64,000 nucleotides of DNA from a virus: the IMG/VR virus record IMGVR_UViG_3300047494_000229, positions 10,273-74,272 of that record; one strand, written 5' to 3'. The notes beneath the pieces are model-generated. The model was not told the DNA's origin. It searched no databases and worked only from the letters and a program-made list of their open reading frames with translations. A program made the translations under genes and the position numbers. Positions 5,842 through 36,587 of this stretch are shown here, piece after piece (positions within the stretch are counted from its first letter, which is position 1; the number at the start of each line of letters is the position of its first letter).

Positions 5842-6393
5842 TCATGATTTTTTAGGAATAGACATTTTATTTTTCAGTTCTTCCATTCGACGTTTAAGTG
5901 ATTCTGGAGGTGGAGAAATAACAAATTCTTCTTTAGCCTCCGCTTTTTCAGATGTTGCTGGCGGCAAACTGCGGGCGTCATTGTCAGAGCATTGGCAGTA
6001 AACCGCTATAAAATTTTTCTCTAATTTTTCTCGTGGTCTTTCTTCGGACAACGCGATCACTCGTAGCCCACCAACCGCTTGTAACGCTACTTTACCTCTG
6101 GTTGATAAATAGGCGATCGCTTCTTCTCTGCCTGCGGCCGCAGTAACTACAGATTGCCACTCTCTGATTGCCTGAGCTTCTTTGTTCCCCTTGATTTTTT
6201 CTACAAACTCGCCGGCTGTCGGGAAAAACCGCGAGTGCAAGATAACCTCTTTAACTGCTTGCTCAAACTCGTCTGTCGTTAACTCTGCATTTAGATATTC
6301 AGCCCAAACGCTCATTACTTCTGGCAATAAGTCTTTTTGAAAATGCTTGGCTATCAGCAAAAGCTTAGTAGTCAAAACTTTTTGGTCAATCAT
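5842..6393 (-). CDS. Replication-associated protein (DUF6475/helicase-loader-inhibitor-like)
   Basis: W...L...F..AV......FFPT.GEF and AVGGL motifs; directly follows the initiator. Confidence 0.6.
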   Translation of the reverse strand: MIDQKVLTTKLLLIAKHFQKDLLPEVMSVWAEYLNAELTTDEFEQAVKEVILHSRFFPTAGEFVEKIKGNKEAQAIREWQSVVTAAAGREEAIAYLSTRGKVALQAVGGLRVIALSEERPREKLEKNFIAVYCQCSDNDARSLPPATSEKAEAKEEFVISPPPESLKRRMEELKNKMSIPKKS

Positions 6394-14538: not shown

Positions 14539-14811
14539 TCAGGCGGCTAATTCCCCCAATAGTTGAATATTTTCGCCTCCCAGTTTTTCTTTAACCACAG
14601 CCAAATCTCCTTCAACAACCGCTAGGCGTTTAGACATTTCTAATATTTCTGAGTCTGAATCTTTTGATTCTCCCTCAGAGTGCAAATATTCATTGATGAA
14701 CTGCTTTAGTACGCCAGTGATTGTCTTGCCCTCTAATTTTAAGCGATCGCCGAATGCCTCCCTGATTTCTGGATCGATCTCAAAAGTTATAAAAGTCCGT
14801 TGTTTGGACAT
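14539..14811 (-). CDS. CopG/RHH-like regulator with coiled coil
   Basis: FITFEIDPEIREAF...GKTITGVLKQFINEYL. Confidence 0.65.
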   Translation of the reverse strand: MSKQRTFITFEIDPEIREAFGDRLKLEGKTITGVLKQFINEYLHSEGESKDSDSEILEMSKRLAVVEGDLAVVKEKLGGENIQLLGELAA

Positions 14812-14877
14812 AGGTTTAGGTTTTTATCGCTTTACATCATTAATCTATCTTTTATTGCTGTACATCGCAATACCGTA

Positions 14878-14906
14878 TTGACAGTGTACAGTAAATTATG
14901 TACAGT
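14878..14906 (+). promoter_or_regulatory. Sigma70-type promoter of the rightward accessory operon
   Basis: TTGACA-17 nt-TACAGT. Confidence 0.6.
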
Positions 14907-14945
14907 AGATACATACACCAAAAGGGTGATCGCCCCACAAAAGCC

Positions 14946-15146
14946 ATGACACAAGTAATTAATCAAGAAACCGTTGAACTTTTAGCTTTTGAAGAAAATC
15001 TGCAACTGAGCAATGGATGCTCAGAGTATCTATTACAAACTGGCGCAAAGCTATACCCGCGCCAGGGAATTAAACCTTGGCGAATTGTAGGGTATACCGC
15101 TACAGATGTTCGGTATTACATTGATCGCTATGAGTTGGATGCCTAG
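14946..15146 (+). CDS. Small hypothetical early protein
   Basis: First ATG after the promoter. Confidence 0.45.
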   Translation: MTQVINQETVELLAFEENLQLSNGCSEYLLQTGAKLYPRQGIKPWRIVGYTATDVRYYIDRYELDA

Positions 15147-15273: not shown

Positions 15274-16683
15274 ATGACATATCCAGCTTACACCCGCATT
15301 CAGTTAGAGTCCAAGAAATTAGTTGAGTTGAAGGCGATCGCCCTGCAACTCCATGCCGCTCCACTTAGCAATAAGCGCGTTACTGGCAATTGGGTAGAGG
15401 CAATTCTTGCCGCTCAACCTCAGCAAGTAAAGATGGCTGAGGTTGAGCAAGCTGATGATTACTTGTTCCACGATGACCCTCAACCAGTTAACTTACCTGA
15501 AGTTGGAGATTCACACTTCATAGGCGATTACCTACTGCGCTGCATTCAGGTTGGTGGCGAGTACGTCACAGTATGGGATGTTCTACTAAATGCAAGTCTT
15601 TCGATGGGCGAAATTCGCATGGGCTGGGATTGCCTCTGGAGCCATACATTGACCCTTGCTACATTCGCTACGCCACAAGAAGCGGTTGTTGATTTGCATG
15701 AATCAGCATTGGAATTTGCAAATTCCAATGCTCCATATGATCAAAATTTAGAAGAAGAATGTTTTTCTGAGTATCCTGATCTTGCAAACGAACGAGAAAA
15801 CGCAATGACGAAAATTATTTACCATCAAACAAAGCCAGGAACAGACTGCCCAGATGGCATCGCCTCAGCTTGGGTGTGTCATAAAGCTTTTCTAGATGCC
15901 GATATCGAAGGGTGTGTGCATCAGGGTGAGCTACCTGATGTTAGCGGGTATGATCGCCTAGTAATTGTTGATTTTTCTTTCTCTGCCCAAATTTTGGAAG
16001 AGTGGGCAAAAACTAAAAAAGTGATCGTGATTGATCACCACAAAACAGCAATGAACGACTTATCTCAATTAAGCGATCACGTACTTCAAAAATTTGATAT
16101 GGGTGAGTGCGGGGCAACTTTAGCTTGGAAGTATTTCTTCCCGAATGAGCCAATCCCCTCATTTTTAAGTTACGTCAAAGACCGCGATTTGTGGAATTTT
16201 GATTTACCTTTTTCGGAGGAGATTCACGAGGCGATCGCCTCCCTCAAATATCAGGCATATGCTGATATTGACAAGCAAAAACGCACTTTTGCAATCTTTG
16301 ACATGATTGCGGATATGAGTGCAGAACAGTTACAAACGGTGTTTGCACCTTGGGGATATCAATTATTAAAGCCCAAGCGCGAACGGATCGCCGAATTAGC
16401 GGTATCTGCTAGCCAACAACTTTTAGATGGCCACAAAATCATAGTGGTGGAAGTGCCAGAAAAAGAAGGGCGACTCATCAGCGATTTGTGTAGTTATCTA
16501 TATAGAAATAATCCCGAATCTGCCTTTGTAGTGGCTTATTACTACTCGGAATCAGATATTAATTTGAGCTTCCGCAGCGACAAAAAAGGCAGCAATTTTG
16601 ATGTATCAGCGATCGCCAAAAGCCTGGGAGGCGGCGGACATCACAACGCAGCAGGTGCATTAGTCCAAGTATTGCCTTGGTAA
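15274..16683 (+). CDS. DHH/DHHA1 phosphoesterase (NrnB-like) with an unrelated ~177-aa N-terminal extension; possible internal start at 15805
   Basis: IIYH..CPDG, IVDFS, IDHH, DRDLW, SFRS, GGGGH motifs. Confidence 0.85.
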   Translation: MTYPAYTRIQLESKKLVELKAIALQLHAAPLSNKRVTGNWVEAILAAQPQQVKMAEVEQADDYLFHDDPQPVNLPEVGDSHFIGDYLLRCIQVGGEYVTVWDVLLNASLSMGEIRMGWDCLWSHTLTLATFATPQEAVVDLHESALEFANSNAPYDQNLEEECFSEYPDLANERENAMTKIIYHQTKPGTDCPDGIASAWVCHKAFLDADIEGCVHQGELPDVSGYDRLVIVDFSFSAQILEEWAKTKKVIVIDHHKTAMNDLSQLSDHVLQKFDMGECGATLAWKYFFPNEPIPSFLSYVKDRDLWNFDLPFSEEIHEAIASLKYQAYADIDKQKRTFAIFDMIADMSAEQLQTVFAPWGYQLLKPKRERIAELAVSASQQLLDGHKIIVVEVPEKEGRLISDLCSYLYRNNPESAFVVAYYYSESDINLSFRSDKKGSNFDVSAIAKSLGGGGHHNAAGALVQVLPW

Positions 16684-16775
16684 TGTCTTGGTAAAGTTCA
16701 GTGGCTGGGTGCGATCGCCATCAAAATCCGCACGCTTAAATTAACACAGGAAAAGGAAAAAACAAGGAAAAAACA

Positions 16776-17165
16776 ATGATCGTAAATTTGACACCTCACG
16801 CCATAAACATTTTGGCTAAAGAATCTTGCGTAAATTTAAAACAAGATCCCAAAACAAGGCAATGGGTTGCAGATGAAGCAACTCCAATTCGGACAATTGA
16901 AAGCTCTGGAGTTGCTAGAGTATCCGTTTCTAGTAGTTATGGGGAACCCCTAGAAGGGATTCCCACCCAAGTTCCAGTCTATGGGGAGATAGAAGGACTC
17001 CCCGATTATAAAGAGGGAACTTCATACATTGTTTCGCTGCTAACCGTTAGTGCAGCGAAAGCCGGAGAACGTACCACAGAAGACTTATTTACTCCTGGGG
17101 TAATAGTTAGGAGTGCTGCAAATCAGTCCCTAATTTTGGGGTGTTTTGATTTAAATCGGCAGTAG
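16776..17165 (+). CDS. Conserved phage protein with N-terminal NLTPH motif
   Basis: IVNLTPHAI...SGVARV...IEGLP...YIVS. Confidence 0.6.
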   Translation: MIVNLTPHAINILAKESCVNLKQDPKTRQWVADEATPIRTIESSGVARVSVSSSYGEPLEGIPTQVPVYGEIEGLPDYKEGTSYIVSLLTVSAAKAGERTTEDLFTPGVIVRSAANQSLILGCFDLNRQ

Positions 17166-17181
17166 AGAGTTCCAAAAATAG

Positions 17182-17784
17182 TTGAATCGCAAAGTGAGTA
17201 CTATGCGATTCAACACGATGACCACAGAAACGAAGATAACACCAATGGCAAAATTTACCGACACTCCAATACTTACCGATCGCTTCTCTCAAGCTCTAGT
17301 TTTTGCAAGCCAAGCGCATTCTCATCAAGTTCGTAAGGGTAATAGAGAAGTGCCTTACGTTTCTCACCTGTTGGCTGTAGCCTCTTTAGTTTTGGAATCT
17401 GGAGGGGATGAAGATGAGGCGATCGCCGCCCTACTCCACGATGCGATTGAAGATATCCAAATTCATCCTGCATTAATTGATCAGAAGTTTGGTTGTTTTG
17501 TTCTTGGGTTTGTCCAAGAACTAACCGAAGACAAGTCTTTGCCTAAGCCAGAACGCAAAGCCGCTTATGTTAAGTCAATTCTTTCAATGTCGGAATCGGC
17601 GCTGAGAATCAGTATCGCCGACAAGCTCCACAATATCCGATGCTACAGCATAAACCCTCAATTGTGGGGGCAAGAGCAACATGAATTTTATGGAGCCTTG
17701 CTCGACAATTACGAACAACGCGAACTCGAAGGCGTTGAAGAACAACTAGTTGAGATGAATTTGCTGTTTGAGCAATTATCTTGA
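17182..17784 (+). CDS. HD-domain (p)ppGpp hydrolase-like protein (small alarmone hydrolase/Mesh1 type)
   Basis: AH..QVRKG...PYVSH, AALLHDAIED, ADKLHN. Confidence 0.85.
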   Translation: MNRKVSTMRFNTMTTETKITPMAKFTDTPILTDRFSQALVFASQAHSHQVRKGNREVPYVSHLLAVASLVLESGGDEDEAIAALLHDAIEDIQIHPALIDQKFGCFVLGFVQELTEDKSLPKPERKAAYVKSILSMSESALRISIADKLHNIRCYSINPQLWGQEQHEFYGALLDNYEQRELEGVEEQLVEMNLLFEQLS

Positions 17785-17891
17785 ATCAAGTTTTAGACAA
17801 CTGCTCAATGTAGTTGATTACCTCACAAAATTAAGAGCGATCGCCTGCCCCGTCAAGAACGGCGATCGCTTGTCCACCCTATAAACAAAAA

Positions 17892-18113
17892 GTGAACACT
17901 ATGAAGTATACATCTCTAGCTACAGTTATTTTATTGGTTGTATCGTCAACACCAGTACTTGCTGATTACACACCTCCGAATAACGGTGGGCCCGATTGCA
18001 ATCCCTGCTTAGGGAGTGGTACGAGGTTTGTTGACAAGCCCAGTAAAACAGAAATGCACGAAATTGATTGCAAGCATCGTGGTTACGATCGCCGTAATTG
18101 CCCAAGTCTTTAG
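17892..18113 (+). CDS. Small secreted peptide
   Basis: Signal peptide ending PVLA, then YTPPNNGGP...GSGTR...HRGYDRR. Confidence 0.6.
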   Translation: MNTMKYTSLATVILLVVSSTPVLADYTPPNNGGPDCNPCLGSGTRFVDKPSKTEMHEIDCKHRGYDRRNCPSL

Positions 18114-18168
18114 GGAATAAGGCAGCCTAGATAAAATATATTGTAGGGGCGATCGCCCCTACTTTCTT

Positions 18169-18888
18169 ATGATCACAGAAAATATCAGAGACGAATTGCG
18201 GCGCATTCATGTTGAACTCAAAAAACCTTTCCCTGCGAACTTACACGAGTTCAGAGAGTTACCTGGCGGTAAAAAATGGGTATTTCTGCGATGGCAGACT
18301 ATCCGTGAAAGGTTGGATGAAGTTGCCCCAGAGTGGATATCTGATTATTCAGAAGTTCAGTATCTTAATAATGATGCCATTTGTCGATGCGGCATCACAA
18401 TATTAGGAATTCGGAAAGAGGCGATCGCTTCTGTTCCAATCTCAATTACTAGCAGTGGTGGTAAAGAAATGAGTCGCGGTAGTGCAGCCGATAGGCTAGC
18501 AGCGGAAGCATTGAAGAATACCGCAGAGGCTTGGGGCGTAGGGCGGTATCTAGACGATCAAGTTTTCACCATCCGTTACCTTTGGGATCGGATGCACGAA
18601 CTTGATGACGCGGCGTGTGGAGAGGTTCGCCGTCTTTCCGAGCAGTACAAACTTGGGATAAAAGCTGCTACTAAACCAGCTTCACTGGTTAAACCTCAAG
18701 CTCCCAGAATTGACCGAAATTCTCTGATGGCTCAAAGTGATTGCCTGATTGCTGGACTGTTATGGACTCCGGCTCAAGGCAAAGAATACCTTGAGAAAAA
18801 TTATGGGAAGGGGGGGCGATCGCTCCTAACTGATGCAGAATTATTAGATTTTATTGGCAAGCTTCAAAGGATGGGTGCTAGTGTCTAA
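18169..18888 (+). CDS. Rad52/Rad22-family single-strand annealing protein (Sak-like)
   Basis: LKKPF, ERLDEV.P.W, AEALKNTAEAWGVGRYL. Confidence 0.8.
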   Translation: MITENIRDELRRIHVELKKPFPANLHEFRELPGGKKWVFLRWQTIRERLDEVAPEWISDYSEVQYLNNDAICRCGITILGIRKEAIASVPISITSSGGKEMSRGSAADRLAAEALKNTAEAWGVGRYLDDQVFTIRYLWDRMHELDDAACGEVRRLSEQYKLGIKAATKPASLVKPQAPRIDRNSLMAQSDCLIAGLLWTPAQGKEYLEKNYGKGGRSLLTDAELLDFIGKLQRMGASV

Positions 18889-19147
18889 AATTATTCCATT
18901 TAGTAACGCTACTGATTATCAATGTTGGCTCTATGCCAACTGCGAAAAATGCAAAAAATACCACGAGGATTTAGACGAACACGGCTACTCAAAATGTGAA
19001 ATTGAAGGGGCGATCGTCTTGTCTAGTTGTGGAGAAGGTTTAACTGAAGAGATGGTTCAAAGAATGGGCGGCGTGCAGTCTGAGCAATGCCTACAAGATT
19101 ACAATTTTTTTTCAACGGAAGTGTACAGAATTAGAGCCAGTAAATAA
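18881..19147 (+). CDS. Small Cys-rich phage protein
   Basis: FSNATDY..W...NCEKC...CEI. Confidence 0.5.
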   Translation: MSKIIPFSNATDYQCWLYANCEKCKKYHEDLDEHGYSKCEIEGAIVLSSCGEGLTEEMVQRMGGVQSEQCLQDYNFFSTEVYRIRASK

Positions 19148-20488: not shown

Positions 20489-20721
20489 ATTGTGCCACTT
20501 TCTCTACTAGATATCTTGCAAATAATCTCAGTTAGATATATAGTAGATATATACCGAAGAGGAGAGCAAACAAATGAACATCACAATCACAGCACAAAAG
20601 CCAGTAAGCGAATTTTTAAAAGTAGCACAAGAGCTAGTTACTGAAGTTCAAGAATGGGCAAAAGTTTTGTGGGTGCGGGTTCTTGGTTGTCGTCCTCAAT
20701 TTGTAAGTAAAAAGGTAATTA
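20489..20721 (+). repeat. Direct repeat copy 1 (promoter + RBS + 49-codon leader)
   Basis: Homologous to 21383-21615; contains TTGCAA-17-TATAGT. Confidence 0.9.
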
Positions 20722-21029
20722 AAAATCAAATGACACCCTTTCCCTTTGAACAACTCAAACAAGAAGTCGTCTCACGCTTCAATGAAGCTGCCTGGCAGCA
20801 TTTATTGGAATGGTCAACTGAACTGACAGAGAAAAATGATAATTGGTTCCTTTCTAAAATTGCGCCATCTGGTCGCCTAGAATTCCGAGCTTTTTACGAG
20901 CGTCTGCAAGCGCTTGAAGTGGCAGTGGCGACAAACGATCATACCAAAGAAAAAGCCTTTCGGCTTTCTGTTATCACCCCTGAAGAAATGGTGGCACGCA
21001 AGGCACGCGCTGCTATGTTTTTACCCTAG
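20574..21029 (+). CDS. Leader-domain fusion protein 1
   Basis: MNITITAQKPVSEFL...SKKVI leader followed by a unique C-terminus. Confidence 0.7.
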   Translation: MNITITAQKPVSEFLKVAQELVTEVQEWAKVLWVRVLGCRPQFVSKKVIKNQMTPFPFEQLKQEVVSRFNEAAWQHLLEWSTELTEKNDNWFLSKIAPSGRLEFRAFYERLQALEVAVATNDHTKEKAFRLSVITPEEMVARKARAAMFLP

Positions 21030-21382: not shown

Positions 21383-21615
21383 ATTGTGCCACTTTCTCTA
21401 CTAGATATCTTGCAAATAATCTCAGTTAGATATATAGTAGATATATACCGAAGAGGAGGGCAAACAAATGAACATCACAATCACAGCACAAAAACCAGTA
21501 AGCGAATTTCTGCAAGTAGCACAAGAACTAATCACTGAAATTCAAGAGTGGGTGAATGTGTTGTGGGTGCGTATCGTTGGTTGCCGTCCTCGGTTTGTAA
21601 GTAAAAAGGTAATTA
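21383..21615 (+). repeat. Direct repeat copy 2
   Basis: Lies 894 bp downstream of copy 1. Confidence 0.9.
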
Positions 21616-22178: not shown

Positions 22179-22548
22179 AAATCCCAACTCCCAGCGCAAC
22201 TTAGTTGCTGGGAAGAACAAAAAACCCAACTCAAAAAAAACGCCCATGCAACTTTCTGGAGTCGCTAGGGAGACAGCTAAAAGAGCTGGAAATGGCAATA
22301 TGACAGAAGGTGTAGAGCGATCGCTTGCACTATATGAGCAAATGAATCAAGATAGACTGTTTGTGCAGTCTCCAGTGTTTGTCAGAGTTAAGTTTTTGAT
22401 AGAAGTGATCGCTCATTCTAAATCTGAATTTTCAGAGCAGGCGGAAGCATTGCTTTATGAATTAGAAGATTTATTTATTGAAGAATCCCATCATGATGCG
22501 GTGTTAGATGGGGCGATTGAATTGAAGGGTGGTGCATATATAGTCTAA
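22165..22548 (+). CDS. Hypothetical protein, possibly DNA-binding
   Basis: NPNSQRNL N-terminus; RHH-like AKRAGNGNMTEGVER. Confidence 0.5.
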   Translation: MPKGENPNSQRNLVAGKNKKPNSKKTPMQLSGVARETAKRAGNGNMTEGVERSLALYEQMNQDRLFVQSPVFVRVKFLIEVIAHSKSEFSEQAEALLYELEDLFIEESHHDAVLDGAIELKGGAYIV

Positions 22549-22622
22549 TAATTGTTGCAGAGTACTAGCAATACTCTGCAATGTTTTTAGTTGAAAGGTA
22601 AGAGGAGTAGAGGAGTAAACTT

Positions 22623-23141
22623 GTGCTTTATAACCATTACGGCATACCCCAAACACGCGATCGCTCCTATGGCGCAGTCGCAGCCCTCACCTATTGGGTT
22701 TTTAAGTGCAGGGATAGAAGAAAGTCCCCAGCGATGGGGATAAAAACCTGGACTTTCTTGGAATCCAGTATCAGAAATTCGGCAGAGATATCTTCTACTT
22801 TGGAAGATTATTTACAGCGACTTTGTGACAAACTTTTCTCCCAACTCCGTCCAGTGGAGTTGACTAAAATAATTCAGCCACAGCAGCGCATCTTGAGAGT
22901 AAATCTTGATGCAACTGAAATCAAAGAATTGCCAATTGACCAAAACTTAGTTTTTATGGGCTGGCTAGATTTGGTTGCTGATATTGCGCCTCACGGTTTT
23001 AGTGAGTGGGACTTACTTGAGTTATGTCGCACCAAAGCGGGGATAATTCAAGTGCTTTGTCGCCTCAAATTTGAAGAGGATCGGGCATTAAGGATGGATG
23101 AGCCGGAAGATGCTATTGAGGTAGGAGCAATTGAATTATGA
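22623..23141 (+). CDS. cas11: Type IV-B small subunit (Cas11-like)
   Basis: All-helical with W..LESSIRNSA...TLEDYLQRLCDKL; located upstream of csf2. Confidence 0.6.
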   Translation: MLYNHYGIPQTRDRSYGAVAALTYWVFKCRDRRKSPAMGIKTWTFLESSIRNSAEISSTLEDYLQRLCDKLFSQLRPVELTKIIQPQQRILRVNLDATEIKELPIDQNLVFMGWLDLVADIAPHGFSEWDLLELCRTKAGIIQVLCRLKFEEDRALRMDEPEDAIEVGAIEL

Positions 23142-23299
23142 AGGAAATCAAAGAAGTCGCTAGCGCCCTAATTAATTTGCAAGATCACGGTGGTGATTGT
23201 ATGTGCAATATCTGCCAAAAAGACCAACAAACGATTGAGAAAAATCCTGAGATAGCGGAACAACTTACTGTATTGGTGAACAAAAAAATAAATGTTTGA
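23138..23299 (+). CDS. 53-aa HxxxCxCxxC microprotein A (not in ORF track)
   Basis: MKEIKEVASALINLQDHGGDCMCNICQKDQQTIEKNPEIAEQLTVLVNKKINV; GGAG RBS; overlaps both neighbours; paralog at 32004-32171. Confidence 0.85.
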   Translation: MKEIKEVASALINLQDHGGDCMCNICQKDQQTIEKNPEIAEQLTVLVNKKINV

Positions 23300-24431
23300 A
23301 AATTACGACATCTGTGATCGTTGCCGCCTAACTCTCCACTGCGTTTTCACCCCCCAACTTCCTTTGTCTCACATTGGGGAAGTGTCAGGAAATGTCAGCA
23401 ACTTAAAAACAGTGAAGCTGCTTGATTTGGAGGGACAATCAAGACAGTGCTTTGTGTATTCAGGGAACGCCATTCGCAACGGTATTTTGCGGCGGGTTGG
23501 TGTAGCAGCTGCCCTTACAGATTTGGAATTACAAGTCAACCCCGACGTGCATCAAACCATGTTCGCCGGTGGACGAATTGACGGTAGCACCGCATCAGAC
23601 ATGGAGTTAGACAAGAAAATCCGTACCTTTTTGCCGTGGCTTTCAGTGCTGGGAACCGCCAAACCCACAAAAGTATTTGGTTCCAAGGATCCTCAAATGG
23701 TTGCAGGGCGGATTAATGTCGGCTCTGCTCATTTAATCTGTTACGAATCAGCTGCTTACATTTACAATCAAATGCCAGGGATGCTGCCTCCAGAGGCGTT
23801 AGAGGGAATTGGGAAAATATTGGAGGCGCAGAAGGCGATCACCCTTGACCCAATGAGTTTACCAACAGCAGAGGCGATCGCCGCTTACAACGAGGTGAAG
23901 GCACAGTATCTACCATTGCTCCGTAAAGTGCTGCGGACATGGACAGAATTTATCACGGTTGACCAAACTACCCGCCGTGACAGTCTTCTTGACCCCAATT
24001 TAATTAAGTTTCTTCCCCCTGAAGCACAGAATTTATTGAAAGGGGAAGGGGGGAAGGAGAAGAAGTCTGACCAAATGATTGCGGGCGATCGTTTGATTAT
24101 GGCGGGGTCAAAACTTTACTCGCGTTGGGATTTAAACACGACATCCGTGGAAGAAGGTTGGGTGTATGATGCATTACTGAAGTTCGATGAATCTCCGTAC
24201 CTTGGAGGGAAGGGGCAAAGGGGTAACGGGCTTATATCCCTAGATATTTGGTATCAATCGGGTAAAGATTCTGGGATATTGTGCAGCATTGGTAAGCGTG
24301 CAGAGTCGGGGTTGTTGAGCGATAGATTCCAAGAACAGCACGGACGTTACAGAGAGTATATCAATCAATACCGCGAGTTCTTGACGGAAGCAAAAGACTC
24401 CAGCGAGTTAAAAAGTTTGTTAGGAAATTAA
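23292..24431 (+). CDS. csf2: Type IV CRISPR Cas7-like backbone subunit Csf2
   Basis: PLSHIG, SGNAIR.GILRR, FAGG, GRINVG...C.E, TRRD, QMI, Gly-rich loop LGGKGQRGNG. Confidence 0.88.
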   Translation: MFENYDICDRCRLTLHCVFTPQLPLSHIGEVSGNVSNLKTVKLLDLEGQSRQCFVYSGNAIRNGILRRVGVAAALTDLELQVNPDVHQTMFAGGRIDGSTASDMELDKKIRTFLPWLSVLGTAKPTKVFGSKDPQMVAGRINVGSAHLICYESAAYIYNQMPGMLPPEALEGIGKILEAQKAITLDPMSLPTAEAIAAYNEVKAQYLPLLRKVLRTWTEFITVDQTTRRDSLLDPNLIKFLPPEAQNLLKGEGGKEKKSDQMIAGDRLIMAGSKLYSRWDLNTTSVEEGWVYDALLKFDESPYLGGKGQRGNGLISLDIWYQSGKDSGILCSIGKRAESGLLSDRFQEQHGRYREYINQYREFLTEAKDSSELKSLLGN

Positions 24432-24519
24432 TTTGAATTGGTACTTGCCAATTCAAAAACACTTTGCTGCTATTGGTACATACCAAAATAAAAGGGCGGT
24501 AGAGCCCAAAGGATAAAAA

Positions 24520-24633
24520 ATGAAGCTAATCAAAGAAACAGTGAATGGACAAGAGTGGACTAACGGTCACAGGGATTCATGGGTGCAGCTTGCCATCCTG
24601 GAGAAAGGCAAGAAGGCGGTTCTCACTGCATGA
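24520..24633 (+). CDS. 37-aa ORF coupled to csf3
   Basis: MKLIKETVNGQEWTNGHRDSWVQLAILEKGKKAVLTA; AAGGA RBS; ATGA overlap with csf3. Confidence 0.4.
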   Translation: MKLIKETVNGQEWTNGHRDSWVQLAILEKGKKAVLTA

Positions 24634-25352
24634 AACCATTGAAAATAACTGCCGTAATGGGAAGTGCGATCGCCTGCTACGACTCCTATTCTCCAAGTTT
24701 AGATTCGCTCCTTGAGTGGCTAATACTGGATAAATTAAACCTCACTTCTCCCAATCCCACACCGGAACAAGTAGAAGCGACGCGCCCCATAGTTGACCGA
24801 GAGATGCCATTAGCCAAAGGCGAAGTTATGGGTGAATGGTATTGGCAGGTTTCTTCACCCTGCTACCGCATTGTGAGCGAATATACAGATAGATACCGCA
24901 AGCGCTGGCAGCCAGGAATTGACAGTCCTCCTCCAGCGTGGGGAAAACGTAAGGCTAAATGGTCAACTTCTGAAGGGGCAGAGAAGAATTACGATCTGCC
25001 TTTATATTGTCGTAATACTCCGGCAATTAATTGGTATGCGGTGGGGGATAGGGAGGCGATCGCCCAACTCCTACAAAACTGTACCCATATTGGCAAGAAG
25101 CGATCTTATGGCAATGGACAGGTTTTGCGATGGCAAGTTGAACCAATAAAAGAAGACTGGCATCTGTGGCGTGATGATAAACTTATGCGTCCTATGCCAT
25201 ACAGGTTGTTATATTCAGATCCGCGAATTTTGCAAAATGAACCTGTAATGATGAATTGGGGATGGCGTCCGCCTGCGTGGTTGCCTAGCAATAAAGAAGT
25301 GTGTGTAATGCCAAAGGGGAGTGTATGCCACTTAACTACGGCACAGGTTTGA
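24630..25352 (+). CDS. csf3: Type IV CRISPR Cas5-like subunit Csf3 (likely start MKPLKITA at 24630)
   Basis: PLKITA, LDSLL, WYAVGD, IGKKRSYGNGQV, RP.P, RPPAW. Confidence 0.88.
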   Translation: MKPLKITAVMGSAIACYDSYSPSLDSLLEWLILDKLNLTSPNPTPEQVEATRPIVDREMPLAKGEVMGEWYWQVSSPCYRIVSEYTDRYRKRWQPGIDSPPPAWGKRKAKWSTSEGAEKNYDLPLYCRNTPAINWYAVGDREAIAQLLQNCTHIGKKRSYGNGQVLRWQVEPIKEDWHLWRDDKLMRPMPYRLLYSDPRILQNEPVMMNWGWRPPAWLPSNKEVCVMPKGSVCHLTTAQV

Positions 25353-26074
25353 CCGCGCCTTGGATGAAGAAAAAAGTAGATAGGGCGATCGCTTGTATTG
25401 AAGACTGGGTAAGTAAGTGTGATCGCCTCTGCTATACCTCAACTAGTGGTGGCAAGGATTCCTTGGTAACTGCTCACCTCATCCGCCACGTTTACCCTAG
25501 CTGCCCAATGGTGTGGATCAATCAAGGGCATTTAGCAGAGTGGCCTGACTGCATTGAACTATTGCAGTTTTTAAAAACTCAGGGATGGAACATCGTTGAA
25601 CTATGTCCAGTGCGCGATTTGTGGCATTTGTACCTCGACTTGGGCATTCCATTGGAAGGGAAAATGGACACCAAAGCAGATAAAATAATAAACCAACGGT
25701 TAATGTACGACCCGTTGGAAGAGTACCAAGAGCTTAACAATATCAAGGGTTACGCTTGGGGTATTCGTAAAGATGAAAGTCGCAACCGCGCTTTTTACTT
25801 GCGGAAGTGGGGAGAATTACACCAACTGAAAAACGGACTGTGGTGTTGTTCGCCTGTGGCATTTTGGACGGTACAAGATATCTGGCTATATATTGACCAG
25901 CAGAAATTGCCTTATCCTGCCATGTATGACCGCGATCGCCTCACCATCCGCAACGGGCCACCCATTGGTACAACCGGGGTAAACTGGGGGCGGTTGGCGG
26001 AACTCAGAAAACACCACCCTGATTTGTGGCAGCAGTTTGTAGAGAAATTTCCAGAGGTGCGAGATTATGGCTGA
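25325..26074 (+). CDS. cysH: CysH-like PAPS reductase family protein associated with type IV-B
   Basis: SGGKDS PP-loop, GIRKDESRNR, P...WT..DIW.YI....LPY. Confidence 0.88.
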   Translation: MPLNYGTGLTAPWMKKKVDRAIACIEDWVSKCDRLCYTSTSGGKDSLVTAHLIRHVYPSCPMVWINQGHLAEWPDCIELLQFLKTQGWNIVELCPVRDLWHLYLDLGIPLEGKMDTKADKIINQRLMYDPLEEYQELNNIKGYAWGIRKDESRNRAFYLRKWGELHQLKNGLWCCSPVAFWTVQDIWLYIDQQKLPYPAMYDRDRLTIRNGPPIGTTGVNWGRLAELRKHHPDLWQQFVEKFPEVRDYG

Positions 26075-26723
26075 TTTGTGTTACCTCTGCGGAAAACCTG
26101 CAACCAAACCACTAGAACTCAAGGATAGTTTCACCAGCCATTCTCAATGCCGCATCCCCACATCAAATAAGATGTGCGATCGGTGTCACTCAACAATTGC
26201 CGGCGACCAAAAACAACTCTGGTACTGGAACGAGGGTAAAAATAAGTGGAGCAAATTGTGGGGGCGATCGCTCTCCCGAATTTATCAAGGCGATAAACTA
26301 CTCGCTCCCGTGATTGAAGGGGAAAAGGAAGGTTTGCCAATAGTCAAAAACCTGCTTACCCGTGTTGAACTTCGCGGTTTTTTACTTAATCCCCCACAAC
26401 CGCCATTTACTATAGCGATCGCCGAGTCAGGGCAGAAGCATATTCTGCCGTGGGCACAAGAGGCGTTAAACCGTGTCATTTTCCCAGTACAATTCGAGCT
26501 TGATACTGTGTATATAGTTTACGCCCAATTTACTGTGCTACTGGGCTTTTATGAGCAGATGATGACGCTGGGATTTTCAAAAACTGAGATTGACACTGGG
26601 GATTATCGGAGCGACAGATTGATGCAAAATCTAGAAATTTGGGAGCCACTGGAAGAGGTGATCGCCCCGATGCGTGGAACGAGATTGTTACAGTTAATTT
26701 CTTTTGTGGGACAAATTCAGTGA
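26067..26723 (+). CDS. csf1: Type IV CRISPR Cas8-like subunit Csf1
   Basis: CYLCG...CDRC Zn finger; LLNPPQPPF.IAIAESGQKH. Confidence 0.85.
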   Translation: MADLCYLCGKPATKPLELKDSFTSHSQCRIPTSNKMCDRCHSTIAGDQKQLWYWNEGKNKWSKLWGRSLSRIYQGDKLLAPVIEGEKEGLPIVKNLLTRVELRGFLLNPPQPPFTIAIAESGQKHILPWAQEALNRVIFPVQFELDTVYIVYAQFTVLLGFYEQMMTLGFSKTEIDTGDYRSDRLMQNLEIWEPLEEVIAPMRGTRLLQLISFVGQIQ

Positions 26724-27529
26724 AACCCTACAAACTGCCTAAAGGTTATTTGAATTTCCAACAATTCAATAACCACTTGAGTCAAATACAATTAGTTAAA
26801 CCCAAACCTATTAATGTTTTGGGAATGCCAGAGGTAGCAAATAATCTATCCCATATCTATAGTAAATGGTCACAGGGATACCCTTTATACTGCGTCAGAC
26901 CTAATCTACTAGAAGAGATGTTAGAAACCGATGTTGGCGAAAATCTAGCACTATTTACTGACATCAATTTAGCAATCCCATCTTATGTTTTGTTTTTACC
27001 TCAATATCAGATTAAATCCCCTTGCGGTAAGGGTTGTATTGATTATCTGGTTATCAATCATGAAGAGTTAGATTTGCCAGAACATAAACACGCGATCGCT
27101 TGGGGCGGTGTTGATTCCAATGATGGATTGTTCTTAGCGTACAAGCGAATTCGCAGGGATGGAACCTTACAGCGATCGCGCTTTGGGACTGAGGATAAAG
27201 AACAACAAGAACAGTCTTTATTACTCAGAAATATAGCATTGCAATCAGTTCTTCTGCTGCAATACTATCCAGAAATTGAAGAGCAAATTACCATTGTGCC
27301 TGGGAAAGAAAAGGGATTTGGTGGGAATAAATTAGAATCCCCTTTTCTACTCCCTCGCTGGTTAGGGAAAGAATCAAAATCGTCGCCAAGCTCAAGCACC
27401 GGTAAAAGTGGTGCATCTAAAGCTACGCATTTTCGGCGGGGGCACTGGAGGGCGCAGCCATGCGGAAAAGGTAGGGCAGAAACAAAAATAACCTGGGTAC
27501 GCCCTGCATGGGTAGCTGGCAACAATTAG
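26720..27529 (+). CDS. Conserved phage protein (likely GTG start at 26720)
   Basis: C-terminal HFRRGHWRxQPCG...WVRPxWV motif. Confidence 0.65.
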   Translation: MKPYKLPKGYLNFQQFNNHLSQIQLVKPKPINVLGMPEVANNLSHIYSKWSQGYPLYCVRPNLLEEMLETDVGENLALFTDINLAIPSYVLFLPQYQIKSPCGKGCIDYLVINHEELDLPEHKHAIAWGGVDSNDGLFLAYKRIRRDGTLQRSRFGTEDKEQQEQSLLLRNIALQSVLLLQYYPEIEEQITIVPGKEKGFGGNKLESPFLLPRWLGKESKSSPSSSTGKSGASKATHFRRGHWRAQPCGKGRAETKITWVRPAWVAGNN

Positions 27530-27542
27530 AGCCACTTTGGAA

Positions 27543-27654
27543 TACCCGACTTCTGCAAGAAGTCGGGTAAAGGGTAAAGGAAAATTCTATCCTTTTCCCC
27601 TTTAACCTTTCCCCCTTTCCCTACAAGAGTACAAAAGGTACTTTTGCACTCTTG
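27543..27654. repeat. Cluster of hairpins and STRR-type repeats closing the type IV operon
   Basis: TACCCGACTTCT-GCA-AGAAGTCGGGTA; AAAGG/CCTTT tracts; imperfect IR ACAAGAGTACAAAAGGTACTTTTGCACTCTTGT. Confidence 0.6.
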
Positions 27655-27802
27655 TCTACTCATCCTCCCTACTTCCCGTAAAAATTATTGGGTAAGGGGT
27701 TGACATTTACCCGTCACTTACCCGATACTATTTACATACGAGGGCGATGGCGATCGCCTTCCAAACAATTGAAAAACCAAAAGTGAAATATAGGAGAAAA
27801 AC

Positions 27803-28575: not shown

Positions 28576-28863
28576 GTGCGATCGCCTGCCACAGGGCAAC
28601 TTAAAATCAAAGCAATGAAGTTCCTTATTTGTAATCATCAAACCCCTGAACAAGTAGCCCAGATGTTGAGGGAGGGAAGGGCAGAAGAAGCGATCGCGCT
28701 TATCCGCCAAACCTACTTCTATAAATCCCCGTATTGTCCAAAATGCGGGGGGAAAATGCGAAAAGACAACAAAACTGGCATTTGCTCAAGATGCCAGAAA
28801 AATAAATTACCTAATTCAAAATACCGGAGGAAAGACCTGCCGGAGAATGAGTTGAGCAACTAG
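28576..28863 (+). CDS. Zn-ribbon protein
   Basis: CPKCG...CSRC. Confidence 0.55.
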   Translation: MRSPATGQLKIKAMKFLICNHQTPEQVAQMLREGRAEEAIALIRQTYFYKSPYCPKCGGKMRKDNKTGICSRCQKNKLPNSKYRRKDLPENELSN

Positions 28864-30608: not shown

Positions 30609-31505
30609 CTACATTCTTCTTTGAATTGCGGCATTAATCACTTCTTGACTACTAGAAGAACTGGTGATGTTTGCCAAATTCAGGAATAAGTTTACTTTAT
30701 CCCTAGCCTGCTCAAATGTTAGTCTTGGCGGATTATTGATCACCAACTTGACTAAATCTGAGTACCAGTATCGGGGCGATCGCAAAGTCAACCCCGCATC
30801 AATAACTTTCTCGCGCCACCCATCTTCGGGCAGGATTTCTTGGTCTTCTTTCCCCAAATACCAATGTTTGCTAACTTGGGGCATCCAAGACCCCATATTC
30901 GCATCACAATACCTTAACCCTTTCACATCCATGAAATCATATCCCATCGCCTTGATTTCTCTAAGAAACGACAATTCAGAAACCCCAGCAATATAAGGAT
31001 GGCAGATGGGAAGAGTTAAAACTCCGTAGTCCTTTGCCAACTGCAAAGTTTTGAGGTGCTGTTTAACCGTAAACCGTTCAATAGGCGGTTCATTTCCAGT
31101 GATGCCCAAGACAAGGGCAAAATTGGGAATTTTGGCAAGCCTCGACATAATGCGATCACTAATTGTCCATTTGCTGACACAAGTAATGAGCTTGGCGATA
31201 GGCGAAACTTTCTCAACCCAATGCCACAAATACTCATCAAGTACTGGGAAAAATGGATCTGTGATGGCTGTGAATCCAACGATATCCCCAGCCAGGATAC
31301 CCCACGGAAAACTATAAAAACGTTCTTGCTCTTGGGGATTGTCCTTAATGAAGGGAGAAACATTAACAAAGCTACAAGCCTTGTTAATGCCCGCAATTGG
31401 GTTCTTATTCCACACCTCCCGACGGGTGTCATGCTCTGTTATAAAGCAATATTTGCAAGCCACGGGGCAAGCAGATTTGCCGACTTCAAAACGGAAGGAT
31501 TGCAT
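30609..31505 (-). CDS. Radical SAM protein, SPL/photolyase-like fold
   Basis: CPVACKYCF (CX3CX2C), TDPF, SKW, P.IAG. Confidence 0.85.
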   Translation of the reverse strand: MQSFRFEVGKSACPVACKYCFITEHDTRREVWNKNPIAGINKACSFVNVSPFIKDNPQEQERFYSFPWGILAGDIVGFTAITDPFFPVLDEYLWHWVEKVSPIAKLITCVSKWTISDRIMSRLAKIPNFALVLGITGNEPPIERFTVKQHLKTLQLAKDYGVLTLPICHPYIAGVSELSFLREIKAMGYDFMDVKGLRYCDANMGSWMPQVSKHWYLGKEDQEILPEDGWREKVIDAGLTLRSPRYWYSDLVKLVINNPPRLTFEQARDKVNLFLNLANITSSSSSQEVINAAIQRRM

Positions 31506-32007
31506 CTAATATCTCCGAAAATACTGAATCTTGATCAAGTTCACCATTGATGGTGATTAATTTGTTTTTTTGTTGCCAAAACTCTAGTAACGGAGGAAGG
31601 CGATCGCTCTCTAGCAATAGTCTTTCCGCGCTACTTAGTTCATCTCCTCTAGCTCGAATTTGACAACGTAATACTGCAATATTTGGGGAAATTTTAAGAT
31701 AGATAACAAAATCTACCTCTTGAACGACTTTGGCTTGATTGATATTGCGAGGAAAGCCATCGATTATCCAAGAATTTTTAGCACATATTGGCTTGGCTAT
31801 TTCAATGGCGATCGCGTCTGGCAACGGAAGCCAAGTTTTACTATCGCCCCAATACGAACTAATTCTTTGGCTGAGTTCGGTTTTATTTTGAAATTCCGCT
31901 CTCACTAAATCCCCCATACTATAATGGAGGACTGTATAAAACTCAGATAGATTCTTACCCTGAGTGCTTTTTCCAGCACTGGGAAGACCTAAGAGAACTA
32001 TCTTCAT
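31486..32007 (-). CDS. Adenylate kinase-like nucleoside monophosphate kinase
   Basis: GLPSAGKSTQ P-loop, SMGDLVR, IIDGFPRNINQA. Confidence 0.88.
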   Translation of the reverse strand: MKIVLLGLPSAGKSTQGKNLSEFYTVLHYSMGDLVRAEFQNKTELSQRISSYWGDSKTWLPLPDAIAIEIAKPICAKNSWIIDGFPRNINQAKVVQEVDFVIYLKISPNIAVLRCQIRARGDELSSAERLLLESDRLPPLLEFWQQKNKLITINGELDQDSVFSEILDAILPF

Positions 32008-32171
32008 TTGTTTTTTGTAGTTAAACTAGCAACGGCGCTAGCGACCTCTGGATTTTTTGAAATCGTTTCCTTGTCTCCCTGACATTGACTACATCCGCAA
32101 TCAGCACCGTGATCTTGCACGTTTGCGATCGCTTCACAAACCTGCTTAATTTGATTAACTTCTTTTGACAT
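32004..32171 (-). CDS. 55-aa HxxxCxCxxC microprotein B (not in ORF track)
   Basis: MSKEVNQIKQVCEAIANVQDHGADCGCSQCQGDKETISKNPEVASAVASLTTKNK; GGAG RBS; ATGA overlap with the kinase. Confidence 0.85.
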   Translation of the reverse strand: MSKEVNQIKQVCEAIANVQDHGADCGCSQCQGDKETISKNPEVASAVASLTTKNK

Positions 32172-33366
32172 TAGCTATCTCCAAAATTTGTACAGGACTC
32201 ATACCCACTGTTACTTGTAGTTCGGGAGGCAAGACATCCTGAAACATCGACAAAAAACAGTAGGCGCATTTTAAGCATTTATTCTTAGGGATATACTCAC
32301 TCCAAACCATCCAGCTATTGACTGCATATAAATCATTGGCTAGCCCAAAGCGCGGGTGTAGCCGAATGTTAGAATTTTCACCTGGTGGAATTGCGGGGTC
32401 TGTTGCTAGCATTCCCCCGGTGATAAACCGAGCAAAGCTCATCTCGCCCCAAGAGGGCATTTTGTTATCCCAAGTGCGAATATTGATGTAAGGCATCCCC
32501 ATGTCGGGAGCTTTTGGGCAGTTTGTGCAGCACAAGCTACACTGCGATCGCACTTCTACCGCGCATTTTTGATATCTTTCTGATGCTGTATGCACTTCAA
32601 CTTGAAAGCCCAAATAACGCAGCAATTCCACACTATGCGGAACTGGCTGCACAAATTGAGCAGTTCCTGCACAAGAATCAGAAATAGGACAAGAATTGCA
32701 ATCAACAAAGTTTGGCGCGTTGTAATACGGCGAGAGCGATCGCTTTTTTTCTGACAACGCCGTAACCGCGCACTGGGTTCTAGTCCAATATGGGACTTTT
32801 AGCCATTGGGCTAATTCCCGCATATATCCTGATGTTGCCTGCGGGGTAATTTTGAGTGTTCGCATCCACTCTTGGTTGTCAGGTGCAGAGATACCCTGCA
32901 TCCCAGCGTCTCTAACAACTTGTTCATCACCACGGAAGCCACTTGAGACAACCGCGTGGCATCCCGCATCAACCGAACGTGTAAACATCTCTTTGATAAC
33001 CCGTGGATCATCGTTGAGAGTGTGAATAATTGGGCGAATATAGGCGATCGCCTTTGCTCCCGACTCACGCGCAGCACTCAAAGTCTTGTACCTTGATTCA
33101 GTTGGTGCTGGCTCCATCTCCTTGGGAAGGTGGGAGATGGAAGCAAATACAAACAAGTTTAAATTAGCTGCCCAATATTTCAAGCGCTCTCGCCACCAAG
33201 GGCTAGACAAATCGCCTTTGGTAATCAGGGCAACTGGCCCCGTATGGTGATCGCTCACCAATTGATTCAATTTAGCTGCTGTACTTTCCCTCAAAATAGA
33301 GGGATCAGCCAAATTATTTACACTGACGGGCAAATCTCTGAGCAATCTTAGCCATTCTTCCTGCAT
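32155..33366 (-). CDS. Radical SAM-like Fe-S protein, apparently circularly permuted
   Basis: SPL-like core (LADP, ITKG, SIS...EP...R..TL, RPII...ND) with no N-terminal Cys triad; CLKCAYCF near the C-terminus; extra Cys clusters. Confidence 0.65.
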   Translation of the reverse strand: MQEEWLRLLRDLPVSVNNLADPSILRESTAAKLNQLVSDHHTGPVALITKGDLSSPWWRERLKYWAANLNLFVFASISHLPKEMEPAPTESRYKTLSAARESGAKAIAYIRPIIHTLNDDPRVIKEMFTRSVDAGCHAVVSSGFRGDEQVVRDAGMQGISAPDNQEWMRTLKITPQATSGYMRELAQWLKVPYWTRTQCAVTALSEKKRSLSPYYNAPNFVDCNSCPISDSCAGTAQFVQPVPHSVELLRYLGFQVEVHTASERYQKCAVEVRSQCSLCCTNCPKAPDMGMPYINIRTWDNKMPSWGEMSFARFITGGMLATDPAIPPGENSNIRLHPRFGLANDLYAVNSWMVWSEYIPKNKCLKCAYCFLSMFQDVLPPELQVTVGMSPVQILEIANVKRS

Positions 33367-33815
33367 AATTTAAAAGACTCCTTTGGATATACAAGACAAT
33401 GTGGGTCGCTGAAGGGGATGAACGGATTGTGCAGGCTCTCAACCACCAATCCCTCATTCCCTGATTTAAATGTGTGGAGTATCCCCCTTGGCATCCACAC
33501 CCGGATACCGGGATGGAGAGGATAATGCAGAATATTTTTGTCTCTATAACAGACAAACTCGCCACTACCTTCAAGGACAGTTACTCTGCGATCGCTCTTG
33601 GGATGAGTGTGGAGGCGATTATCTTCTGTCGATTCCGGGGGGAATCGGACAATTAGCTGGCCCAACTCTCCCCACACTGCCTTGATTAGCAGGGCTTCCA
33701 TGTATTCTTCGTAGGCTACCCAATCGCCTTGAGGGATTGGCGCACAAGAAAGTTCAACTTTTTCAACGCCGCCACGCTTCCAATTTTGACGGCATTGTTC
33801 AGCAAAATTAATCAA
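33348..33815 (-). CDS. Cupin domain protein
   Basis: LHTHP...VTVLEGSG and MPRGILHTF. Confidence 0.85.
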   Translation of the reverse strand: MINFAEQCRQNWKRGGVEKVELSCAPIPQGDWVAYEEYMEALLIKAVWGELGQLIVRFPPESTEDNRLHTHPKSDRRVTVLEGSGEFVCYRDKNILHYPLHPGIRVWMPRGILHTFKSGNEGLVVESLHNPFIPFSDPHCLVYPKESFKLCRKNG

Positions 33816-36165: not shown

Positions 36166-36587
36166 CAGAAATTAATTATCTCCGCAGCCCGTTGCATCTC
36201 AGAGTCAAAGCCAGATAAATTTGCCTTATTTTCAGCAACTCCTAGATGGAATCGGGTGATTGCCTTACTTTGCTGTGCATCGAGTTGCTGCACTTCCCTT
36301 TCAATTTTCATCATTGCTTTGGAATGCTCAACTCGAGTTTTGAGAATCGCAACCAAGTTGCCAGCAACGCGTTGTTGATGCCTGGAAAGCTGTGCCAATA
36401 ACTGAGATTGTGCTTCTGTTCGCCCTGCCATCCCTGAAGCTTCCACTACAGTAGAAGCGTTGGTTTTAGTTGGCAGGACAGCGCGACTTGCTAGAAGGCG
36501 TTTTTCATTCCCGACAATCTTTGTGGGGTCAGACCCAGTACCCAAAGATGAGGAGCGATCGCCCCCACCGCCAAAAATACTTAACAT
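36165..36587 (-). CDS. Coiled-coil protein
   Basis: Operon-packed, helical. Confidence 0.6.
   Translation of the reverse strand: MLSIFGGGGDRSSSLGTGSDPTKIVGNEKRLLASRAVLPTKTNASTVVEASGMAGRTEAQSQLLAQLSRHQQRVAGNLVAILKTRVEHSKAMMKIEREVQQLDAQQSKAITRFHLGVAENKANLSGFDSEMQRAAEIINF

Follow-up and report, generated by a model that had tools for sequence, protein, structure and literature searches.

We analyzed a 64,000-nt stretch of viral DNA (hereafter the window), which comprises bases 10273-74272 of the linear, 74,272-b IMG/VR record IMGVR_UViG_3300047494_000229; coordinates are window positions unless another contig is named. Between 22623 and 27529 the window contains seven plus-strand open reading frames (ORFs), cas11, a micro-ORF, csf2, csf3, a cysH-like gene, csf1 and an acrVA2-like gene. 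These data are best explained by an intact operon that is under selection and belongs to a phage-borne type IV-B CRISPR lineage; its products would form an RNA-loaded Csf complex that acts with an adenylating partner in phage-host or phage-phage conflict. We consider this explanation probable, though well short of certain. Systems of this kind were known before, and the window adds a well-supported member to type IV-B.

Effector subunits and the CysH-like enzyme

Genes were typed with profile hidden Markov models (HMMs) from PADLOC, Pfam and the NCBI TIGR families and with profile searches of the PDB, and the coordinates agreed with the ORFs. An earlier note, made from the letters of this DNA alone, had placed a complete type IV-B effector here. 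All five Cas and accessory families were recovered by the profile HMMs at those positions, and Csf1, Csf2 and Csf3 were each assigned to their type IV Csf family. The product of csf2 (23292..24431, 379 aa), the type IV Cas7 backbone subunit, matched PADLOC typeIV_Cas7 at 1.4e-29 and 2.1e-27, and its profile matched the IV-B Csf2 of PDB 7jhy at 3.7e-4 and also the IV-A complex 8rc2. The product of csf3 (24630..25352, 240 aa), the type IV Cas5, matched PADLOC Csf3_0_IV (2e-47), TIGR03116 (5.8e-17) and the solved Csf3 7xfz (4.2e-8), and also 8rc3. The large subunit encoded by csf1 (26067..26723, 218 aa) matched PADLOC Csf1_0_IV at 2.8e-24 and TIGR03114 at 2.7e-8, the latter below the NCBI equivalog cut-off. 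Its CxxC...CxxC zinc finger (C5, C8, C37 and C40) and its ESGQKH motif were invariant, and its profile gave nothing meaningful against the PDB. The small subunit gene cas11 (22623..23141, 172 aa) has a GTG start behind a GAGGAG ribosome-binding site, and its product matched three PADLOC typeIV_Cas11 models, at 2.8e-6, 2.4e-5 and 5.1e-3. Cas11 was predicted to be mostly helical; its AF2 model was of low confidence (pLDDT 50.5) and too poor for a fold search, and its profile matched nothing meaningful in the PDB. Co-folding of Csf3, Csf1 and CysH scored 0.00, which speaks neither for nor against binding.

The cysH-like gene (CasCysH; 25325..26074, 249 aa) encodes a PP-loop ATP pyrophosphatase that matched PF01507 (PAPS_reduct) at 1.2e-14, and its nearest defence profiles were BrxP, SspD and DndC. 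Twelve CysH homologues fell into two divergent variants, in which the SGGKDS or SWGKDS loop, GxRxxESxxR and an LPY..YD block were kept. The C-terminal cysteine of PAPS reductases was not conserved among these 12 proteins. CasCysH has been described as an ATP alpha-hydrolase or adenylating enzyme, not a reductase, with a PP-loop and without the catalytic C-terminal cysteine (PMC8175902). Because the motifs of the window enzyme match this published view, we infer that it catalyzes adenylation and not sulfonucleotide reduction. The second CysH variant (26-28% identity, SWGKDS loop, without an insert of about 25 aa) was located at L009:11806-13207, L005:13364-14915, L014:4088-4819 and L020:3174-4237, loci of the related contigs described below; it was accompanied by a 230-aa ORF in L005 and L009 and by a 122-aa cupin (PF07883, 2.8e-12) in L020.

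The resemblance of the CysH-like protein to the DNA-modification enzymes DndC, SspD and BrxP would also suit a guide-free process outside CRISPR conflict, in which the Csf filament coats RNA or DNA without specificity and brings it to the enzyme, for example to shield the nucleic acid of the phage or to gain control of RNA metabolism in the host. The heterogeneous RNA of the purified IV-B complex (PMC7937560), a DNA methyltransferase gene upstream of the operon in the window and a paralogue of the micro-ORF downstream could be accommodated by the same idea. However, the catalytic cysteine for sulfur chemistry is missing, and the links of the lineage with Cas6, arrays, Cas12p and an anti-CRISPR (Acr) gene, presented below, point to conflict. 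We regard this alternative as very doubtful.

The genes are tightly packed. The micro-ORF overlaps cas11 by 4 nt (ATGA) and csf2 by 8 nt, csf1 overlaps cysH by 8 nt, and the GTG start of the acrVA2-like gene lies over the csf1 stop codon TGA (GTGA). The longest ORF of csf3 runs from 24579 and that of cysH from GTG 25301, which overlaps csf3; the real starts are probably ATG 24630 and ATG 25325, the former in view of the homology to relatives and to contig X2, which sets in at or just before 24630. A hairpin with a 12-bp stem followed by a T-run (22553..22583, +), a terminator-like site, lies 40 nt 5' of cas11, with a promoter-like site just 5' of it (22517-22544); this hairpin either terminates the preceding gene or forms part of the 5' untranslated region of the operon. 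A perfect hairpin with an 11-bp stem (27545..27569, +), 16 nt 3' of the last stop codon, is likely the operon end, and the next promoter-like site beyond it is at 27700-27729. Its 28-nt palindromic core (27542-27569) was present at 96% identity in 9/20 genomes of the Dolichospermum genus group and is either a host-like repeat or a shared terminator. The overlapping stops and starts on one strand, together with the flanking hairpins, indicate a single operon of seven ORFs. Short contigs identical to parts of cas11 and cysH were found in two moss/plant metatranscriptome runs, perhaps one data set filed twice, which is a weak hint of transcription and no proof of it.

Relatives, cargo slots and carrier phage

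The relatives examined were 26 viral contigs, found with the Csf2 alignment, and two contigs of cyanobacterial metagenome-assembled genomes (MAGs), 28 loci in all. A scan of viral contigs with the single Csf3 protein found none of them, the Csf2 alignment being what retrieved them, and no match to the cassette was obtained by blastn or tblastn among 50,697 isolated phage records. The order cas11-csf2-csf3-cysH-csf1 was kept in 28/28 relatives at 44-82% identity, with cas11 directly upstream of csf2 in every one. The rearranged order with csf1 last, to which the earlier note had drawn attention, is therefore real (26/26 viral and 2/2 MAG loci). The published IV-B order is csf1-cas11-csf2-csf3 with cysH alongside (PMC7937560). 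This canonical order does not occur here, and gene order is descriptive and no subtype-defining trait.

Homologues of Csf2 formed at least 291 clusters at 90% identity, many of them at 60-87% identity in metagenomes. The closest homologues were 87% identical for Csf2 and 86% identical for the AcrVA2-like protein. A pattern-based Csf2 scan of 185,579 species genomes found only two short MAG contigs (Dolichospermum and Spirulinaceae). With two phages that were fetched in full (G169 and G173), sharing at the DNA level was confined to the cassette, and the flanking genes were not common. Of the differences listed between csf2 and its near relatives, 23/29 were at third codon positions, and csf2 is by this sequence measure under purifying selection. 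The restriction of DNA sharing to the cassette and the third-codon bias argue that the cassette is a selected, mobile module and did not arise by rearrangement at this locus.

The gene junctions of the cassette are apparent cargo slots. In the cas11-csf2 slot the window has the micro-ORF (23138..23299, 53 aa, HxxxCxCxxC motif), and L002-type loci have an unrelated 111-aa ORF. The microprotein listed in the earlier note thus exists as an ORF but is outside the conserved cassette: it was absent from all 28 related loci, had no family match in the profile libraries and, on this comparison, occupies a variable slot as cargo specific to its lineage. A paralogue of the micro-ORF at 32004-32174 (-) shares the pattern ..QDHG.DC.C..CQ.D..TI.KNPE.A.. 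with it and belongs to a minus-strand operon (30609-33815), two ORFs of which had no Pfam match. Likewise, the extra stretch between csf2 and csf3 that had been called an insert is present, but it is a non-coding slot of 198 nt (24432..24629, +; fold z-score -2.0) that varies between relatives. It opens with a perfect hairpin (24432-24457, stem 10-11 bp) directly after the csf2 stop. In a relative of about 95% identity, 1133 other letters replaced 24462-24626, and another relative had a tRNA-like 3' end in this slot. Six loci had Cas6 inside the cassette (PF09559, 5e-47), in the csf3-cysH slot in L015 (11674-12432) and L016-L019 and after csf2 in L020 (2300-3181). The cysH-csf1 slot was occupied by a 230-aa ORF or a second csf3 in relatives. 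A partly duplicated cassette at L014:1399-8665 contained two csf1, three csf3 and two cysH of different variants, with extra N-terminal fragments of cas11 and csf2.

Deletion forms were also seen. At L027:10001-10431 the N-terminus of csf2 is fused to the C-terminus of csf1, and contig X5 skips 24970-26508 of the window, so that the C-terminus of csf3, cysH and the N-terminus of csf1 are gone. Such forms, and the lack in the window of a Csf1 tail and of accessories found in relatives, would be expected if the operon were a decaying, non-working remnant. However, all genes in the window are full length, the invariant motifs are intact, the coupling is kept and the differences are mostly synonymous, and we find a remnant scarcely credible.

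The carrier is best explained as a temperate siphovirus of Nostocales, with the operon in an accessory region. A 645-aa structural protein was 57% identical to that of Nodularia siphoviruses, with more distant kin in Planktothrix and Aphanizomenon phages, and a Mu-like major head protein and a head protease are encoded in the window. A large serine recombinase (1478-2842, +) with Resolvase, Recombinase and Zn_ribbon_recom domains indicates that the phage is probably temperate. Several close Csf2 homologues were on contigs binned as Dolichospermum. The DNA itself most likely stems from the assembly of a moss metagenome. The structural-protein match to Nodularia phages and the Csf2 kin on Dolichospermum MAG contigs bear out the earlier assignment to a cyanophage with a Nostocales host. 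Among the tail genes, a 541-aa protein (49982-51607, -) with F5/8 type C (galactose-binding-like) and GDSL lipase/acylhydrolase domains may be a receptor-binding or envelope-degrading protein.

A 102-nt contig from a public DNA run ('organism B') consisted of repeat, spacer and repeat, and its 35-nt spacer was identical to 20534-20568 and had one mismatch to 21428-21462. Both sites lie inside repeated promoter/leader cassettes upstream of the operon. The identity shows that some CRISPR array somewhere targets this phage.

Guide RNA, Cas12p neighbours and the AcrVA2-like gene

No CRISPR-like or tandem array was found in the window or in the whole 74,272-b record. The six repeat families of related phages were absent from this phage at up to 6 mismatches, and two solitary-repeat patterns (CTTGC...GAAAC/TTCACC) gave a single chance-level match within a gene in the window. 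Six-frame searches of the 74-kb record found no Cas1, no DinG-type helicase domain (Helicase_C_2) and no Cas6, and for Cas12 gave a sub-threshold zinc-ribbon match only. Neither Cas6 nor Cas12p of the relatives was detected in this phage by tblastn, nor was any TnpB, and the ORFs near the operon had no DinG/RecD helicase, Cas10-like HD or adaptation gene matches in the profile libraries. The negative result for Cas6 is meaningful because the same Cas6 model found Cas6 in the relatives G169 and G170. The earlier statement that the window lacks an array, cas6, cas1 and dinG was thus borne out; a cognate array or cas6 just outside the window had been allowed for, and neither was found when the whole record was scanned. 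Pairs of 12-mers in G000 were considered as mini-arrays and rejected, as their positions coincide with a dispersed palindrome element. The sub-threshold zinc-ribbon match (Cas12f/TnpB, TNB; 28651-28800, 16 bits, E 9e-4) lies in an ORF of 95 aa (28576-28863) that is probably just a small zinc-ribbon protein.

A cognate array, perhaps with Cas6 or Cas12p, could be hidden in the unsequenced part of the genome, in which case Csf would be a CRISPR RNA (crRNA)-guided silencer, similar to CRISPR interference (CRISPRi), of rivals or of the phage's own genes. The record is linear without terminal repeats and has a CheckV completeness of 69%. The relative G169 (74,186 b, direct terminal repeats) has Cas6 and keeps two mini-arrays with one hairpin-type repeat (6124-6443 and 14644-14968) at 40-48 kb from its cassette. 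The relative G173 (the record of L005; complete, 95 kb, terminal repeats) has arrays at 71460-71928 and 77866-78121 and two self-matching spacers (33/33 and 37/38 nt; targets 36438-36470, L043:16438-16470, and 20702-20738, L043:702-738). One of the targets is in a divergent promoter-like intergenic region and the other falls within an ORF that exceeds 2890 aa, which suggests self-regulation or a missing protospacer adjacent motif (PAM). However, CheckV gives G169 only 71% despite its direct terminal repeats, so that 69% may be an underestimate, and neither Cas6 nor any repeat-like unit is present in the 74 kb. Most published IV-B loci are also array-less (PMC7937560), and the form of IV-B with Cas6 and arrays is rare. 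We judge a hidden array to be improbable.

The description of IV-B as array-less, given in the earlier note, holds for this window, but several close relatives have arrays near csf1, as part of a neighbouring Cas12p system. In seven of the 26 related viral contigs (L004, L005 and L007-L011), arrays were found 1-7 kb downstream of csf1, where as many as 38 repeats formed an adjacent pair of arrays, and each of these loci had a TnpB-like protein of 622-627 aa (Cas12p) next to its arrays. The Cas12p of L011 (14188-16056, with arrays at 16342-19115) was 100% identical over 613 aligned residues to the solved Cas12p of PDB 9jfs; its gene follows, at a distance of 1 kb, a cassette whose proteins are 64-79% identical to those of the window. 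Cas12p ('Cas12 hacker'), a nuclease of phages, depends on host thioredoxin, a trans-activating crRNA (tracrRNA) and a GTN PAM, and the preprint describing it makes no mention of type IV (bioRxiv 10.1101/2025.01.20.633832). A 587-aa TnpB/Cas12u2-like gene was present at the array end in L011 and L012. The 68 unique spacers of the relatives matched neither this phage nor other loci nor isolated phages. A 22-mer of two phage repeat families was not found in cellular genome contigs, and a search of 151 Nostocaceae genomes that allowed up to 3 mismatches gave no match for one phage repeat.

Many Csf1 proteins of this lineage end in a tail that consists of a variable Pro-rich linker and a terminal QLSLF or near variant. 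The tail was present in 17/29 loci proteins (for example L002:13202-13294 and L009:13880-13978; proteins P0145, P0156, P0158 and P0159), and among the best 150 Csf1 representatives drawn from 1.84 billion proteins 26 had a QLSLF-type tail, compared with 0/143 controls. QL[SD]LF is a bacterial sliding-clamp-binding motif, and the tail is accordingly a predicted docking peptide for the sliding clamp (DnaN). The Csf1 of the window ends before any QLSLF-type tail, and the window also lacks Cas6 and Cas12p.

Both a crRNA sponge and RNA-guided modification, the two functions suggested in the earlier note, have been put forward for IV-B in the literature (PMC7038947, PMC8175902). As a sponge, the Csf complex would soak up crRNAs of the host (type I-D/III) or of rival phages and serve as a multi-subunit anti-CRISPR (PMC7038947, PMC7937560). 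The lack of an own array or Cas6 in the 74 kb, the Acr-family gene that closes the operon and the spacer against this phage in the public DNA run are consistent with such a role. However, an enzyme would be superfluous in a sponge, yet both CysH variants have an invariant PP-loop; relatives have Cas6 and their own mini-arrays; the clamp-docking tail on many Csf1 relatives points to DNA; and the phage-array repeat sought in the Nostocaceae genomes was not found there. Pinilla-Redondo et al. called a sponge unlikely because it would be too complex (PMC7038947). The invariant PP-loop, the relatives with Cas6 and mini-arrays and the Csf1 clamp tails are easier to reconcile with an active machine directed at nucleic acid than with a passive sponge, which we hold to be unlikely.

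The last gene of the operon (26720..27529, 269 aa; longest ORF from 26639) encodes a predicted AcrVA2/FinQ-family homologue with putative anti-CRISPR activity. The ORF 26639-27529 had no match in four profile libraries, in which the Pfam copy used did not include PF26125, and phmmer against the PDB gave nothing. However, a precomputed match to PF26125 (AcrVA2-like) is on record for this protein and for 17/20 homologue clusters, although among its atlas neighbours only 29-38% of members have PF26125. The AF2 model had a pLDDT of 76.7 and a pTM of 0.72. Its best three PDB matches in Foldseek were 7ci2_A, 7ci1_B and 7ci1_A (E 2e-3 to 5e-3, probability 0.98-1.0, TM 0.44-0.50), whereas the next matches had a probability of ≤0.18. 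Near the C-terminus, HFRRGH fits the HxRxxH motif, which is required for AcrVA2 to induce the degradation of cas12a mRNA (bioRxiv 10.1101/2022.11.29.518452). Among 16 homologues R239 was invariant and H237 nearly so; the second His was in the consensus but not among the ≥90% columns. Thus csf1 is coupled to a following gene, as the earlier note said, but this gene is AcrVA2-like and not a generic conserved phage gene. Its homologues are few (21 clusters), and in two large phage contigs they lie away from any csf gene, which indicates that only this phage and a few close relatives have the gene coupled to csf1.

The slot after csf1 might be a type V battleground, with Cas12p there in relatives and an AcrVA2-like protein here that would shut down a rival Cas12p or a host type V effector. 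Csf and CysH would work with either partner, for example by capturing type V or host guide RNAs and adenylating them or their targets. We give this idea little credence; if it were true, IV-B would not stand alone but would generally help, or act against, other CRISPR systems.

The explanation that we prefer, an RNA-loaded Csf complex with an adenylating partner, would work as follows. By analogy with the Mycobacterium IV-B complex, the proteins would form a nuclease-free Csf ribonucleoprotein with Csf2 as the backbone and Cas11 as the minor filament, and Csf3 and Csf1 would sit at one end. The RNA would be supplied in trans, not encoded beside the operon, and could come from the host or a co-infecting element or be a non-CRISPR RNA. 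The CysH-like enzyme would use ATP to adenylate bound nucleic acid or protein, and the module would serve the phage or prophage against host CRISPR or rival phages. The co-transcribed AcrVA2-like protein would be a second, independent counter-defence arm. The terminal Acr-family gene and the links of the lineage to Cas6, arrays, Cas12p and a replisome-docking peptide make a role in conflict likelier than a metabolic one, and the array spacer that is identical to this phage agrees with such a role. Several points weigh against this explanation. The RNA partner, the target and the enzymatic activity are predictions from sequence, and the only IV-B complex purified so far was on heterogeneous RNA (PMC7937560). 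The arrays of the relatives belong to the tracrRNA-dependent Cas12p and give no proof that Csf uses crRNA. The term array-less applies only to the sequenced part of this incomplete record. The assignment of Cas11, with its modest E-values and low-confidence model, is weaker than those of the other subunits. Finally, AcrVA2-like homologues occur in other phages apart from csf genes, and the coupling here may be incidental.

The cyanophage lineage is large and naturally varied, with bare forms, forms with Cas6 and a mini-array, Cas12p-adjacent forms, forms with or without the Csf1 tail and AcrVA2-like-coupled forms, and comparison of these cassettes could reveal the RNA loaded by the complex and the function of CysH. 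The hosts are bloom-forming and moss-associated Nostocales, which are ecologically important and CRISPR-rich, so the module probably shapes phage-host or phage-phage dynamics. The gain from this window is modest: the AcrVA2-like coupling is a new association, and the mechanism is not revealed. The window adds a bare form without tail or array, a micro-ORF with a paralogue and a CRISPR spacer against this phage.

Comparison with known systems

Type IV-B has already been published on plasmids, prophages, lytic phages and archaeal viruses, and in 2026 it was one of the few class 1 subtypes without a known function (PMC13676074). The literature searched contained no account of IV-B in cyanophages or next to Cas12p, and no AcrVA2 family member was described there inside a cas operon. 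Compared with the Cas12p phage loci (bioRxiv 10.1101/2025.01.20.633832), the window lacks Cas12p, TnpB and a tracrRNA/array locus, and the AcrVA2-like gene is at the same place after csf1. The AcrVA2-like protein resembles Moraxella bovoculi AcrVA2 and FinQ (7CI1/7CI2; bioRxiv 10.1101/2022.11.29.518452) in its predicted whole-length fold, in the precomputed match to PF26125 and in the C-terminal HxRxxH. However, it is only 13-14% identical to them, and most members of the family occur where Cas12a is absent.

Type IV-A shares homologous Csf2 and Csf3 and a nuclease-free effector with the window. In contrast, IV-A has DinG, Cas6/Csf5 and arrays and is without Cas11 and CysH, and no IV-A-specific gene is present here. 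The IV-B system of the 'Fuxiviridae', viruses of Bathyarchaeia (PMC10848311), is likewise a complete effector with a CysH-like protein on a viral genome, for which a role in counter-defence or in conflict between mobile genetic elements was proposed. A host spacer targets the virus there, as a spacer from the public DNA run targets the phage here. However, that system has the canonical order, a mini-array beside the cas genes and an archaeal host, and no Acr-family gene was reported in its operon.

The IV-B system of the Mycobacterium sp. JS623 megaplasmid (7JHY; PMC7937560) differs from that of the window in having csf1 first, whereas here csf1 is last, behind cysH, and in being on an actinobacterial plasmid and not in a cyanophage. 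The sequences are very distant (E 3.7e-4), and the micro-ORF, the non-coding slot and the AcrVA2-like gene are extra cargo here. However, both systems have Csf1, Cas11, Csf2, Csf3 and a CysH-like protein, both are without array, Cas6, helicase and adaptation genes (here in the sequenced part), and both are carried by a mobile element.

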